From Escherichia coli (GTDB lineage: Bacteria > Pseudomonadota > Gammaproteobacteria > Enterobacterales > Enterobacteriaceae), in NCBI RefSeq assembly GCF_041248615.1, contig NZ_CP158426.1: a DNA stretch of 64,000 bases, one strand, 5' to 3'. Below are positions 18,001 through 24,000 of the stretch, piece after piece (within the stretch, counting starts at the first letter, position 1; each line of letters begins with the position of its first letter). Made by a program: the position numbers.

Positions 18001-21000
18001 CGCGTCAATGTCGAGACAGAAGCCCAGCAGCACGAGTCTTCACGCACCAATGGCGGCGCGCTGATCAGGACTATCAATATTCGCGTTGAGAACCCTAACC
18101 TGCATGATTTAGCCATTAAAGATGTACCGATTCTCAACGGCGACAAAATTATCTGCTCGCGTCTGAAACGAGAAGAAACCCTAAAAGTACCTTCGCCAGA
18201 TACCATTATCCAACTGGGCGATTTGCTGCATCTGGTGGGGCAGCCAGCGGATTTACATAATGCGCAACTGGTGATTGGTCAGGAGGTTGATACCTCGCTG
18301 TCTACGAAAGGCACTGATTTGCGCGTCGAGCGTGTGGTGGTCACCAATGAAAACGTGCTCGGAAAACGTATTCGCGACCTGCACTTTAAAGAACGCTATG
18401 ACGTTGTTATCTCGCGCCTGAACCGTGCCGGGGTCGAACTGGTCGCCAGTGGCGATATCAGCTTGCAGTTCGGCGATATCCTCAACCTGGTGGGGCGTCC
18501 GTCCGCAATTGATGCCGTTGCCAATGTGCTGGGGAATGCGCAGCAAAAACTGCAACAGGTTCAGATGTTGCCGGTGTTTATTGGTATCGGGCTTGGCGTA
18601 TTGTTAGGCTCTATTCCCGTCTTTGTGCCGGGATTCCCGGCCGCGTTGAAACTGGGGCTGGCGGGCGGTCCGCTGATTATGGCGTTGATCCTCGGGCGTA
18701 TCGGCAGTATCGGTAAGCTGTACTGGTTTATGCCGCCAAGCGCCAACCTCGCGCTGCGGGAGCTGGGGATCGTACTGTTCCTCTCGGTAGTGGGGCTGAA
18801 ATCTGGTGGGGATTTTGTGAATACCCTGGTCAATGGCGAAGGGCTAAGCTGGATTGGTTATGGTGCGCTGATCACCGCCGTTCCGCTGATTACTGTTGGC
18901 ATTCTGGCGCGGATGTTAGCCAAAATGAATTACCTGACCATGTGCGGGATGCTGGCTGGCTCCATGACCGATCCTCCGGCGCTGGCGTTTGCTAATAATC
19001 TTCATCCAACCAGCGGTGCGGCGGCGCTCTCTTACGCCACTGTCTATCCGTTAGTGATGTTCCTGCGCATTATCACCCCCCAATTACTGGCGGTGCTCTT
19101 CTGGAGTATCGGTTAACTCTTTTCCGGGTGGAGTCGCCGTAAATGGTACTCCACCTGGTATTCGTTGGCATTTCTGAACATTACTGAATAATTCAAAAAC
19201 TCCCCGCTCTCGCTATATGACAACGAGGTGATCCGCAGCAGTGGCGTGTGTTCCGCTACCTTCATTTGCCGCGCCAGCAGTCTATCGGCGAGCACCGGCG
19301 TCAGGCTTTCATAATTACCGCCAATCAGAATCCCGCACTCTTGTTCAATATATTCAAACTTCGACCCTTCCAGATGTTGCAGCGATAGGTTGCGGAACAG
19401 TTTTACCGGCATATAGCTGTCTTCCAGCATCAGCGGTTTCCCTTCCACAAAACGAACGCGACGGGAGAAGTAGATCTGCTCGTTGATTTGAATCCGTAGC
19501 TGGCTGGCAATGGCCGGAGGCGCAGGCATGATTTCAAAAATCAGCACCTGGCTGGTGACCGTTTTTCCCTGGCGTTTTAACACCTCCACCAGCCCGGTCA
19601 GGCTGGCGGTTTGATGCAATACATCTTTACGCACCAGGTAAGTACCGCTGCCGTGGCGGCGGACCACCAGCCCCCACGCCACCAGCAGGTCAATGGCTTT
19701 ACGGATGGTCATCCGCGATACCGCAAATTCTTCCGCCAGCTTTTTTTCACCGGGAAGAAGGCTGTTTAGCGTGAAATCTGCGGAATTAAGTCGAATTCTT
19801 AATCGCTCCGCAATGCTTTTGTAGATCATCTCTAGATCTCTTTTTTGCCTGCAAGCCCGGGTAATGCGCCCACAAGTTCTGCTTAATCGATTGAAAAAAA
19901 ATCTTTTTTTTAAAGATGTGTTCGATGCTGTGTACCAGTGCTCACAGATGTCTACTTTTTCGCGAAAACGTAGATCTCTACCGCCCAACGAAAAGCATGA
20001 AAGCGATCACGAATCCCATTGGGTCGTCATGTTCTGCCGATCGCATCTTCCTATCCTCGCTCCAGGCCTGCCGCATAACCAATCAGGCTTCCTACTTACA
20101 GAATTGAGAAAAGAGGATGTGGAAATGCTCAGTCAAATTCAACGCTTTGGCGGCGCGATGTTCACGCCAGTGCTGCTGTTTCCCTTCGCCGGGATTGTGG
20201 TGGGTCTTGCCATCTTGCTGCAAAACCCGATGTTTGTCGGGGAATCACTGACCGATCCGAACAGTTTATTCGCGCAAATCGTACATATTATTGAAGAGGG
20301 CGGTTGGACGGTATTCCGTAATATGCCGCTGATTTTTGCTGTCGGTTTACCCATTGGCCTTGCTAAGCAAGCGCAGGGGCGAGCTTGTCTGGCGGTGATG
20401 GTGAGTTTCCTGACCTGGAACTATTTCATCAACGCGATGGGAATGACCTGGGGAAGCTACTTCGGCGTCGATTTCACTCAGGACGCGGTGGCAGGTAGCG
20501 GTCTGACAATGATGGCCGGGATTAAAACCCTCGATACCAGCATTATCGGCGCAATTATCATTTCCGGCATTGTGACGGCGCTGCATAACCGTCTGTTCGA
20601 TAAAAAACTGCCGGTGTTTCTCGGCATTTTCCAGGGGACATCTTATGTGGTGATTATCGCCTTCCTGGTGATGATCCCCTGCGCCTGGCTTACGTTGCTC
20701 GGCTGGCCAAAAGTACAAATGGGGATTGAATCTCTGCAAGCGTTCCTGCGTTCGGCGGGTGCGCTTGGGGTCTGGGTTTACACCTTCCTCGAACGTATTC
20801 TGATCCCAACCGGTTTACACCACTTCATCTACGGACCGTTTATCTTTGGTCCGGCAGCTGTTGAAGGCGGCATTCAGATGTACTGGGCGCAGCATCTGCA
20901 AGAGTTCAGTTTGAGCGCCGAGCCGCTGAAATCGTTGTTCCCGGAAGGCGGTTTTGCCCTGCACGGTAACTCAAAAATCTTTGGTGCCGTGGGCATTTCT

Positions 21001-24000
21001 TTAGCGATGTACTTCACTGCCGCACCGGAAAATCGGGTAAAAGTGGCGGGCTTGCTGATTCCCGCAACCTTAACCGCCATGCTGGTGGGAATTACCGAAC
21101 CGCTGGAATTTACCTTCCTGTTCATTTCACCGTTGCTGTTTGCAGTACACGCCGTGCTGGCGGCCTCAATGTCGACCGTAATGTATCTCTTTGGTGTGGT
21201 GGGCAACATGGGCGGTGGTTTGATTGACCAGGTTTTACCGCAAAACTGGATCCCGATGTTCAGCAACCACGCGGATATGATGCTGACCCAAATCGCCATT
21301 GGGTTGTGCTTTACCCTGCTGTACTTCGTGGTTTTCCGCACCCTGATTCTGCAGTTCAACATGTGCACGCCGGGACGTGAAGATGCGGAAGTGAAACTCT
21401 ACTCAAAAGCCGAATACAAAGCCTCGCGAGGCCAAACCACCGCGGCAGAGCCAAAAAAAGAGCTGGATCAGGCTGCCGGTATCCTGCAAGCCCTGGGCGG
21501 GGTCGGCAATATCTCCAGCATTAACAATTGCGCGACGCGTCTACGTATTGCACTGCATGACATGTCACAAACGCTGGATGACGAAGTCTTTAAAAAGCTG
21601 GGAGCGCACGGCGTCTTCCGTAGTGGCGATGCCATTCAGGTGATCATTGGTCTGCATGTATCCCAGCTGCGTGAACAGCTCGATAGCTTAATTAATTCTC
21701 ATCAATCAGCAGAAAATGTTGCCATTACGGAGGCAGTATAATGACCAAATTCTCAGTGGTTGTCGCAGGCGGTGGAAGCACCTTTACGCCAGGCATCGTG
21801 TTGATGCTCCTGGCGAATCAGGACCGTTTCCCGCTTCGTGCACTGAAATTTTATGATAACGATGGTGCGCGGCAGGAAGTGATTGCCGAAGCCTGTAAAG
21901 TCATCCTTAAAGAAAAAGCGCCGGACATTGCGTTTAGTTACACCACCGATCCTGAAGTGGCATTCAGCGACGTTGATTTTGTCATGGCGCACATCCGCGT
22001 CGGCAAATACCCGATGCGCGAACTGGATGAAAAAATCCCGCTGCGCCACGGCGTTGTTGGTCAGGAAACTTGCGGACCCGGCGGAATAGCGTACGGCATG
22101 CGTTCCATTGGCGGCGTCCTGGAACTGGTGGATTATATGGAAAAATATTCACCAAATGCCTGGATGCTCAACTACTCCAACCCGGCAGCCATTGTCGCAG
22201 AAGCCACGCGTCGTCTGCGCCCGAATGCGAAAATCCTCAACATCTGTGACATGCCAATCGGTATTGAAAGCCGGATGGCGAAAATTGTTGGGCTGCAAGA
22301 TCGCAAACAGATGCGCGTGCGCTACTACGGCCTGAACCACTTTGGCTGGTGGACATCAATTGAAGATTTGCAGGGCAACGACCTGATGCCCCAGCTGCGG
22401 CAATATGTCTCGAAGCACGGTTATGTTCCACCGCAGCAAGATACACATACTGAAGCGAGCTGGAACGACACCTATGCAAAAGCGCGGGATGTCCAGGCAC
22501 TGGACCCGGATACATTGCCGAACACCTATCTGAAATATTATCTCTTCCCGGATTATGTCGTTCAGCATTCCAACCCTGAACATACCCGCGCGAATGAGGT
22601 GATGGAGCATCGCGAGAAACAGGTTTTCGATGCTTGCCGCGCCATTACGGAGGCAGGAAATTCAGCGGCGGGCAAGCTGGAAATTGACGAACATGCGTCA
22701 TACATCGTCGATCTGGCGGCGGCAATTGCCTTCAACACTCAGGAGCGGATGTTGCTGATTGTGCCTAACAACGGGGCAATCCATAACTTTGATGATGAAG
22801 CGATGGTCGAGATCCCGTGTCTGGTCGGGCACAACGGACCAGAACCACTGGTGGTCGGCGATATCCCGCAGTTTCAGAAAGGGTTAATGAGTCAGCAAGT
22901 GGCGGTGGAAAAACTGGTCGTGGACGCCTGGGAGCAGCGTTCATATCAGCACCTGTGGCAGGCGATTACGTTGTCGAAAACGGTACCGAGCGCCGCGGTC
23001 GCCAAAGCTATTCTGGATGAGTTGCTGGAGGCCAACAAAGCGTACTGGCCAGAGTTACGTTAATTGTGTGGACTGGCATCCGTTGGGTGCTGGTCCGTAT
23101 TCTTCAGCACAGCTGACGGCGCATAACCAAATTTATGTTTAAAGGCTTTGCTGAAATGAAAGGAGTCGAAGAAGTTGAGCGTATCAGCGACTTCGCCAAC
23201 CGAGTTCCCTTGTTGCTTTAATAGCGATAGCGCCAGATCCAGACGTGCATCGAGGTAATATTCTTTCGGCGTCTTGCCGGTATAGCGTAAAAACAGACGA
23301 CGCAACCAGGCTTCGCTACAGGGGATCGTGGCAGCCATATCAGCTACGCTCCAGCGTTGTTGCAGACTGGCATGTAAAGTGGCAATTAGTTTTTCAATTT
23401 GCCGCCGTTGTGGATCTTTTTTACCGTCTGCGTACATAAGACAAATCCACTGATAAATAATTTTCGTCAGAAAAGCGACTGCCAGATTATTTTTTATTGC
23501 TTCTGGTGAAGTAATTAATTCAGCAACTTCGGTGAGTTCCTGATTATAAACTTCGCCATTATAAATAACGCTTTGCTGACCGACGGGAATATCCATCATA
23601 CTGGTGGGGGTAAATTCCATCCAGTACTGTTCCCAGACTAAACCTTCACAGTGATAAGAGTGAATATCCATTGGCTTTAAAAATATAATACAGTTGCCAT
23701 GCAGAGTTATTTGTTCGCCATTCTTTAAAAGAATTTTCCCACATCCTTGTACGGTATACACCGCAACCCATGAGTTGGCGATAAGCGGTTTCTTCTTGTC
23801 CCGCGGCCAGATCACCCGGTAATGCTCGTCGGCGTAGGTATGCCAGAGCGAGATCAGAGAAATTCCGCTGGAGATCACATTTTCGTTAATCAATAAGGGA
23901 ATATTGTACGGAGTTTCGTTTTTTACATCTGAACTTTGCAATTTTCCATTCATTTTAATATCCCTCCGGCGAATTATGCTCACAACCTGAACTTAACAGA

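Follow-up and report, generated by a model that had tools for sequence, protein, structure and literature searches.

An intact glv locus in Escherichia coli, probably an undecayed form of an enterobacterial alpha-glucoside PTS operon

In a 64,000-nucleotide stretch of E. coli contig NZ_CP158426.1 (hereafter, the window), positions 20125–23063 hold what sequence comparison indicates is most likely the alpha-glucoside PTS operon of enterobacteria in an E. coli version that has not decayed. This operon corresponds to glvCB-glvG of E. coli and to aglA-aglB of Klebsiella pneumoniae. Within this region, the first-pass annotation had reported two uninterrupted open reading frames (ORFs) encoding a 538-aa fused EIICB and a 440-aa GH4 enzyme, and both are confirmed by the ORFs themselves, by RefSeq, and by full-length alignments (Table 1). 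The annotated coordinates of both genes in RefSeq record NZ_OW967178.1 are exactly those of the two ORFs, and full-length alignment to orthologs and profiles reveals no hidden frameshift or stop in either. The intact allele in this strain is already known and already correctly annotated, with RefSeq naming the GH4 enzyme "6-phospho-alpha-glucosidase".

Table 1. Coordinates of the genes, candidate regulatory elements, and K-12 lesion sites of the glv region, numbered from the first nucleotide of the window.
Feature	Position	Strand	Basis
yidP, GntR/HutC-type regulator (HTH + UTRA), 238 aa, divergent	19113..19829	-	Pfam GntR 6.8e-21, UTRA 1e-30; RefSeq
34-bp palindrome AGATGTCTAC...GTAGATCT, yidP-EIICB intergenic, candidate YidP operator	19946..19979	.	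Inverted repeat, 17-nt arms, 82% complementary
Near-invariant block AAAAGCATGAAAGCGATCACGAAT with CRP-like CATGA-N6-TCACG, candidate cAMP-CRP site	19991..20014	+	Footprint, 13 intergenic regions
-10-like hexamer TATCCT (TATTCT/TATGCT in other genera)	20052..20057	+	Conserved TAT-CT columns
EIICB, fused GlvC+GlvB, AglA ortholog, alpha-glucoside PTS permease, 538 aa	20125..21741	+	ORF listing, Pfam, TIGR02005
K-12 nonsense site, codon 369: C here (CAG, Gln369), T in K-12 (TAG)	21229	+	Alignment to MG1655, codon table
GH4 6-phospho-alpha-glucosidase, predicted NAD+/Mn2+-dependent, intact GlvG, AglB ortholog, 440 aa	21741..23063	+	ORF listing, Pfam, structure matches
508-bp segment deleted in K-12, codes GH4 residues 198-367 including His200, Tyr263	22334..22841	+	MG1655 alignment
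8-bp direct repeat GAACCACT, left copy, bounds K-12-type deletion	22334..22341	+	Flank sequences
8-bp direct repeat GAACCACT, right copy, bounds K-12-type deletion	22842..22849	+	Flank sequences

The EIICB and GH4 proteins

The EIICB start is the ATG at 20125, from which its orthologs also align, with a ribosome-binding site (GAGGA, 20113–20117) lying 7 nt 5' of it. The EIIC domain (PTS_EIIC, PF02378, residues 10–346, E 1e-71) contains the GITE sugar-binding motif at residues 322–325 and is followed by an EIIB domain (PTS_EIIB, PF00367, residues 453–482, E 2e-12) with the phosphorylatable Cys469 in NNCATRLR. The protein aligns lengthwise to E. coli PtsG structures, with the Cys469 motif matching the Cys motif of PtsG, and at 959.2 bits it exceeds the 607.3-bit cutoff of TIGR02005, the alpha-glucoside EIICB subfamily, covering profile positions 1–524 of 524. 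RefSeq labels the full-length EIICB "PTS sugar transporter subunit IIB"; the label stems from a model derived from the K-12 GlvB fragment and is an artefact that masks the true EIICB nature of the protein.

The GH4 start overlaps the EIICB stop at the junction TAATG, preceded by its own ribosome-binding site (GGAGG, 21729–21733), and the pair is translationally coupled. The enzyme comprises an N-terminal Rossmann domain (PF02056, residues 6–184, E 1.6e-66) and a C-terminal domain (PF11975, residues 195–415, E 5.6e-56); with such E-values, as with those of the two EIICB domains, chance is not an issue. Residues 1–439 align without gaps to K. pneumoniae AglB (6DUX; 911.9 bits, ~88% identity), and the alignment to Bacillus subtilis GlvA (1U8X, 749 bits) is likewise ungapped. 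The NAD+-binding GXGS motif is present as AGGGST at residues 9–14, aligned with the same motif in both structures. Cys169-Asp170 (CDMP), His200, and Tyr263 are all found at the expected positions, matching GlvA Cys171, Asp172, His202, and Tyr265, which we take to be the Mn2+ ligands (Cys and His), the catalytic Asp beside the Cys, and the catalytic Tyr.

When compared to other intact E. coli alleles, the EIICB gene has a dN/dS of 0–0.04 (21–26 synonymous and 0–2 nonsynonymous differences) and the GH4 gene one of 0.07–0.13, while the pair gives 0.03–0.10 against other genera. Given the motifs present and a within-E. coli dN/dS of 0–0.13, the two genes very probably encode working proteins. AglA/AglB orthology, intact active-site motifs, and purifying selection support, at the sequence level, the earlier idea that alpha-glucoside utilization may work in this strain.

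Comparison with K-12

Direct alignment to MG1655 places the K-12 genes glvC, glvB, and glvG (b3683, b3682, and b4556) at the same locus with the same flanks. Outside the lesions, only 22 substitutions separate the two sequences over ~3.3 kb, with hardly any difference in yidP or the intergenic region. Unlike the window, K-12 has a Gln369-to-stop change that splits the EIICB and a frameshifting deletion within the GH4 gene (Table 1). Because codon 369 is TAG rather than CAG, MG1655 has glvC (368 aa) and glvB (161 aa) as two genes, and because the 508-bp deletion shifts the frame, glvG is a pseudogene. The first-pass annotation had described just such a cryptic or split K-12 locus, with separate glvC and glvB and a glvG pseudogene, and the alignment bears this out: neither lesion of the K-12-type decayed glvCBG allele is found in the window, which has both CAG at codon 369 and the 508-bp segment, and K-12 does not have the same intact ORFs. 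The single copy of the 8-bp repeat left in K-12 is a signature of microhomology-mediated deletion, and the junction is identical in 6/6 deletion strains examined.

Distribution and decay within E. coli

Among 5,426 complete E. coli genomes, a full-length GH4 gene with the 508-bp segment is present in 1,652 (~30%), including O157:H7, O145, BL21, and ATCC 8739, and the intact form is therefore ordinary rather than rare in the species. The K-12-type deletion is found in ~2,600 genomes, and yidP-glv is wholly absent from ~1,150 (phylogroup B2). By exact 50-mer counts, the K-12 nonsense codon (TAG) occurs in 348 genomes and CAG in 3,727. In several lineages, including BL21, LT883142, and CX12, yidP is frameshifted. 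This repeated, independent decay of the locus points to weak selection to keep it in the species as a whole. In deletion strains, the ratio of synonymous to nonsynonymous differences is 23:5 for EIICB, and the dead GH4 remnant displays the same synonymous excess (8:2); this polymorphism probably predates the deletion or was shuffled by recombination. We reject horizontal gain of yidP-glv in non-B2 E. coli and favor its loss in B2, since neither the gene order nor the chromosomal site changes across Enterobacteriaceae. Other Escherichia species were not among the matches listed in the genome scan for the locus.

Relationship to characterized alpha-glucoside systems

The order ibpB-yidE-yidP-EIICB-GH4 is observed in over 25 genera or species, Raoultella, Klebsiella indica, and Citrobacter braakii among them, and in the form ibpB-yidE-yidP-EIICB-GH4(-yidL-yidK-yidJ) it is conserved in Citrobacter, Klebsiella, Raoultella, Kluyvera, Enterobacter, Lelliottia, Phytobacter, and others. 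It follows from this conserved order that the locus is vertically inherited and orthologous to aglAB. The K. pneumoniae aglR-aglA-aglB locus has the same layout as the window, with a divergent GntR-type regulator, an EIICB, and a GH4 enzyme, and in the Klebsiella/Raoultella group it lies in the same neighborhood, with ibpB-yidE upstream. Identity is ~88–89% between AglB (6DUX/6DVV) and the GH4 protein and 81% between AglA and EIICB, and neither locus contains an EIIA gene. The two differ in that E. coli has substitutions in the intergenic motifs, that the downstream genes vary by genus, and that the E. coli system is known from sequence.

The B. subtilis glvA-glvR-glvC system (malA/malP), in which GlvA is a maltose-6'-phosphate glucosidase (1U8X), shares phosphorylating uptake by a PTS followed by NAD+/Mn2+-dependent GH4 cleavage, with ~73% identity in GH4 and ~61% in EIICB. 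Unlike in the window, its GH4 gene comes first, and it is not syntenic with the enterobacterial locus. Its regulator GlvR is RpiR-type, a different family from that of YidP.

According to PMC5309279, which draws on Pikis 2006, Thompson 2001, and Reizer 1994, expression of aglA/aglB in E. coli K-12 allows growth on alpha-glucosides, the K-12 homologs of these genes are cryptic or truncated, and AglA works with the endogenous E. coli EIIA-Glc (citing Pikis 2006).

Proposed regulation and mechanism

YidP, at 72–82% identity, adjoins EIICB-GH4 in over 40 loci of enterobacteria and is the positional ortholog of the regulator beside aglA/aglB in Klebsiella/Raoultella; it is presumed to be the repressor of the operon. 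The half-sites of the intergenic palindrome (TGTCTA/GTAGA) are kept in 13 enterobacterial genera, with the right half reading GTAGAT in E. coli versus GTAGAC in other genera. Likewise, the E. coli leader has ATTGAGA where other genera have GTTGTTA, inside an otherwise invariant intergenic motif. The candidate CRP site lies ~60 nt 5' of the predicted transcription start, as judged from its spacing to the -10-like hexamer. A consensus scan of 19700–23300 found no strong sigma-70 promoter (3.1 expected), and the EIICB promoter looks weak and activator-dependent. No strong terminator consensus was found above background, nor any known RNA element in 19000–24200.

By analogy to the characterized orthologs, from which we infer substrate range, Crr use, regulation, and expression sufficient for growth, the membrane EIICB would import alpha-glucosides such as maltose, methyl-alpha-glucoside, isomaltose, and maltitol, as well as the sucrose isomers trehalulose, turanose, maltulose, leucrose, and palatinose, and would phosphorylate the glucosyl O-6 of the imported sugar via Cys469 of the IIB domain. 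Since the locus encodes no EIIA, phosphate would probably pass from PEP through EI, HPr, and the general EIIA-Glc (Crr) to EIICB; crr is a core E. coli gene located beyond the 64-kb window. The co-translated GH4 enzyme would then cleave the 6-phospho-alpha-glucoside to glucose-6-phosphate and the aglycone by NAD+/Mn2+-dependent oxidation-elimination-addition. YidP probably represses the operon at the conserved palindrome, and the CRP-like site probably makes its expression cAMP-dependent.

Alternative explanations

Older K-12 annotations describe an arbutin or beta-glucoside PTS with a 6-phospho-beta-glucosidase, a reading that survives in historic labels only, such as "arbutin specific PTS permease" for glvC in Table 5 of Touchon et al. 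2009, and that we consider scarcely credible here. The sequence scores effectively refute beta-glucoside or arbutin specificity: against the 912 and 749 bits to 6-phospho-alpha-glucosidases, the GH4 protein reaches at best 213 bits to a 6-phospho-beta-glucosidase (1S6Y; 149 bits to 1UP6), and EIICB passes the cutoff of TIGR02005 only, with the beta-glucoside and arbutin models at 40–45 bits versus cutoffs above 600. It is also very improbable that the genes are recently inactivated pseudogenes with disabling missense changes invisible to ORF inspection. The locus does decay readily in E. coli, and the GH4 protein of the window differs by 4–5 residues from those of other intact alleles. However, 505 contigs encode exactly that GH4 protein, the EIICB protein (WP_000952127.1) is identical in O157:H7, ATCC 8739, and TUM1223 and occurs on at least 1,000 contigs, and every checked catalytic residue is present.

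A working but silent operon deserves more weight, and we regard it as a tentative possibility: like bgl, asc, and chb of E. coli, glv could be intact yet cryptic, with the phenotype awaiting a regulatory mutation such as loss of YidP. The missing consensus promoter, the E. coli-specific substitutions in conserved regulatory motifs, and the frameshifted yidP of BL21, LT883142, CX12, and other lineages are all consistent with this. Diagnostic tables and identification schemes essentially score E. coli as negative for alpha-methyl-D-glucoside and palatinose, which is difficult to square with ~30% intact loci unless the operon is poorly expressed, although diagnostic panels consist mostly of clinical B2/A/B1 isolates without a working locus. 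In addition, alpha-linked glucosyl-sorbitol tracers are taken up by K. pneumoniae and not by E. coli of unstated glv genotype (PMC12728616). In the literature searched, we found nothing useful on YidP, on the expression of glv, or on a phenotype of E. coli strains with an intact locus, and the main text of two B-versus-K-12 phenome studies does not mention alpha-glucosides. Against silence, strong purifying selection on both genes in E. coli implies at least occasional use, and the CRP-like block, the -10-like element, and both ribosome-binding sites are kept. An undecayed alpha-glucoside PTS operon remains the reading we prefer.

Implications

Beyond housekeeping, the intact glv allele is of little consequence. 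The locus is nonetheless a clean case in which K-12 is unrepresentative of its species, and it presents one catabolic operon in several independent stages of decay, from the intact form through a nonsense mutation and a microhomology deletion to loss of the entire locus in B2. O157:H7, BL21, this isolate, and others that keep the intact allele might metabolize food sweeteners such as isomaltulose or maltitol, or industrial isomaltose, which K-12 cannot. More speculatively, and in our view rather unlikely, sucrose-isomer use may have been overlooked in ~30% of E. coli, and the EIICB that stays intact in the ~2,600 hydrolase-less genomes may have a hydrolase-independent role there. If such overlooked use were true, isomaltulose (palatinose), isomaltose, and maltitol would be used by O157:H7, O145, BL21, and this clinical isolate, which would contradict the species-level label of "alpha-glucoside negative" and let the locus serve to mark a niche or lineage.

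An uninterrupted transporter and hydrolase gene pair

The first-pass annotation had described single uninterrupted ORFs of 538 aa for the EIICB and 440 aa for the GH4 hydrolase, and both descriptions hold. The ORF listing gives a single frame open up to 21741 followed by a second ORF, EIICB can be aligned over its full length to the solved structure of E. coli PtsG EIICB, and GH4 aligns without gaps to Klebsiella pneumoniae AglB (PDB 6DUX; 912 bits, ~88% identity) and Bacillus subtilis GlvA (1U8X; 749 bits). The RefSeq CDSs coincide exactly with both ORFs and carry no pseudogene flags, and 20000-23100 of RefSeq NZ_OW967178.1 (E. 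coli isolate 362, from a Madrid hospital) matches window 20000-23100 at 100% identity. EIICB orthologs in 12 further enterobacterial genera use the ATG equivalent to that at 20125 and share its RBS. A one-base overlap (TAATG) joins the transporter and hydrolase genes, with GGAGG 7 nt 5' of the second ATG, an arrangement that indicates translational coupling.

Features of the locus and its intergenic region
Feature	Position (strand)	Description
yidP	19113-19829 (-)	upstream, divergent; GntR/UTRA regulator
34-bp palindrome	19946-19979	TGTCTA/GTAGA half-sites; conserved in alignment
24-nt block	19991-20014	near-invariant; CRP-like CATGA-N6-TCACG core
-10-like TATCCT	20052-20057	~60 nt downstream of CRP-like core
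EIICB	20125-21741 (+)	start ATG at 20125, 538 aa; GAGGA 7 nt upstream
GH4	21741-23063 (+)	440 aa
yidL		downstream, convergent; AraC-type regulator

Within EIICB, a PTS_EIIC domain (E 3.7e-71) precedes a PTS_EIIB domain (E 2e-12), and the whole protein scores 959 bits against the alpha-glucoside-specific IIBC model TIGR02005 (cutoff 607). It retains GITE at residues 322-325 and the phosphorylatable Cys469 within NNCATRLR. Models for glucose, maltose/MalX, N-acetylglucosamine, sucrose, trehalose and beta-glucoside transporters were also considered, and EIICB falls far under their cutoffs. RefSeq/PGAP names the protein 'PTS sugar transporter subunit IIB', which understates an alpha-glucoside EIICB; the name arises because equivalog NF007255 (161 positions) derives from the GlvB fragment of K-12 and covers just the C-terminal third of the protein (residues 378-538). 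In GH4 both family domains are present, and 6-phospho-beta-glucosidases reach at most 213 bits against it. The GGGS NAD+ motif, Cys169-Asp170 (CDMP), His200 and Tyr263 lie where GlvA has its Mn2+ ligands and catalytic residues.

Two lesions separate the K-12 allele

When 19830-23100 is aligned to MG1655, the two differ by 22 substitutions and one 508-bp gap. A substitution at 21229 makes CAG (Gln369) TAG in K-12, whereas the window keeps CAG; as a result the K-12 EIIC domain ends short of its last membrane segment and "GlvB" restarts at Met378. The gap, corresponding to 22334-22841, starts in codon 198 and takes out residues 198-367, including His200 and Tyr263, and it shifts the frame because 508 is no multiple of three. 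An 8-bp direct repeat, GAACCACT, bounds the deleted segment; the single copy left in K-12 is a signature of microhomology-mediated deletion. MG1655 is annotated accordingly, with glvC of 368 aa, glvB of 161 aa and an 815-bp glvG pseudogene. The split glvC/glvB and the glvG pseudogene had been described for K-12 in the first-pass annotation, and the stop at codon 369 and the frameshifting gap bear out that description in every detail.

Allele states within E. coli

Among 5,426 complete E. coli genomes, the locus is present in 4,279, with the 508-bp segment found in 1,652 (30%) and the locus lacking that segment in ~2,600 (48%). In the remaining ~1,150 (21%) it is wholly missing. This last class is phylogroup B2 (e.g., ST131 and F11), in which yidE adjoins yidL with no yidP, EIICB or GH4, in agreement with the listing of glvC by Touchon et al. 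2009 among functions specifically missing from B2 (PMC2617782). In the sampled ST131 genome, the neighboring sulfatase-like yidJ is also annotated as frameshifted (5452-6620 of its locus, L004).

Both genes are intact in O157:H7 F8797, O145 RM12522, TUM1223 and ATCC 8739, as well as in BL21-RIPL and LT883142. The K-12-type deletion occurs in IAI1, 22-250, D6, 2018-06-4CC and E6, and EIICB and yidP are uninterrupted in all five of these non-K-12 strains. The junction is identical in 6/6 deletion strains examined, consistent with one ancestral deletion event. Other lesions are seen in CX12, where codon 170 of EIICB is a stop and yidP is frameshifted, and in Z226-5, where ~370 bp of EIICB are deleted. 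The K-12 nonsense allele is far less frequent than the deletion: exact matches to the TAG 50-mer are found in 348 genomes versus 3,727 for the CAG 50-mer, and the three TAG carriers sampled were all laboratory-type strains. The EIICB protein encoded in the window, WP_000952127.1, is identical in O157:H7, ATCC 8739 and TUM1223 and lies on at least 1,000 public contigs; 505 contigs carry a GH4 protein identical to that of the window. Taken with the state counts and strain examples, these numbers identify the intact pair as a common, already catalogued allele.

An ancestral enterobacterial locus

When a single genome of each species was scanned, GH4 relatives with 80-92% identity occur throughout Enterobacterales among the matches listed. 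By tblastn with neighboring window proteins, the order ibpB-yidE-yidP-EIICB-GH4 recurs in Citrobacter braakii, Klebsiella indica, Raoultella, Kluyvera, Enterobacter, Lelliottia, Phytobacter, Pseudocitrobacter, Cedecea, Buttiauxella and others, often with yidL-yidK-yidJ next after GH4. This conserved order argues that the locus is ancestral at its site and that the E. coli genes have their positional orthologs in aglA/aglB of K. pneumoniae, a pair characterized by experiment (81% identity for EIICB and 89% for GH4 in ATCC 13883); the absence of yidP-glv from B2 is a loss.

In Kluyvera and Superficieibacter (L011, L014 and L029, ~7300-11300), a tandem second module sits beside the first, with a yidP-like regulator gene at 56-60% identity and GH4 at 85-86%; its EIICB (75%) was detected in L029 only. 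In ATCC 8739 (L007, 4261-5501) and three further E. coli loci (L089, L090 and L091), yidL is cut to 75 bp, and a decayed IS200/IS605 tnpA and a TnpB/InsQ gene are found instead.

Putative regulatory region

An alignment of 13 yidP-EIICB intergenic regions reveals the palindrome, the CRP-like block, the -10-like element and, as a fourth conserved element, the RBS. From this footprint, these elements would have regulatory roles, and the palindrome is a plausible candidate operator for YidP. E. coli-specific substitutions fall within motifs that are invariant elsewhere, in the palindrome (GTAGAC to GTAGAT) and in the leader. A promoter scan of the region detected no strong sigma-70 consensus promoter, and no Rfam family matched there. 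Upstream of it, RefSeq annotates a ROSE-type RNA thermometer at 16240-16312, in the ibpA leader. Frameshifted yidP genes occur at 393-1030 of the BL21-RIPL locus (L006) and at 193-830 of L089 and L090, including BL21 and LT883142, in which the transporter and hydrolase genes are intact.

Constraint, function and expression

Compared with other intact E. coli alleles, EIICB differs by 21-26 synonymous and 0-2 nonsynonymous changes (dN/dS 0-0.04) and GH4 by 11-16 and 4-5 (dN/dS 0.07-0.13); versus other genera, dN/dS is 0.03-0.10. These low ratios, together with the intact motifs, argue that the proteins work. In deletion strains, EIICB polymorphism is 23:5 synonymous to nonsynonymous, and the dead GH4 remnant is similarly skewed (8:2), so the EIICB count does not demonstrate ongoing selection. 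A passage in PMC5309279 (citing Pikis 2006, Thompson 2001 and Reizer 1994) states that aglA/aglB give E. coli K-12 the use of isomaltose and sucrose isomers, that the endogenous crr product serves AglA, and that the K-12 homologs are regarded as cryptic or truncated. By analogy with the orthologs, the pair would take up and 6-phosphorylate alpha-glucosides through the PTS, with phosphate via EIIA-Glc, followed by NAD+/Mn2+-dependent GH4 cleavage to glucose-6-phosphate and aglycone. The earlier suggestion of a possibly functional alpha-glucoside system thus gains support from constraint, motifs and aglA/aglB orthology.

It is possible, and in our view rather unlikely, that the intact operon is cryptic and poorly expressed. 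In identification tables, E. coli is generally listed as negative for alpha-methyl-glucoside and palatinose, which would favor poor expression if these scores are valid for intact-allele strains too. Our literature search found no published phenotype for intact-allele E. coli. As expected, the B2 type strain, from a lineage without the locus, tests negative for maltitol, alpha-methyl-glucoside, palatinose and turanose (PMC4334874), a result that is uninformative for intact strains.

The pair under study is a common, already annotated and well-understood allele of a known operon. If YidP is a repressor, strains with a frameshifted yidP might express this operon constitutively. Independent inactivation has occurred repeatedly and shows that E. 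coli as a whole is under weak selection to keep the locus, despite the apparent constraint on intact alleles.
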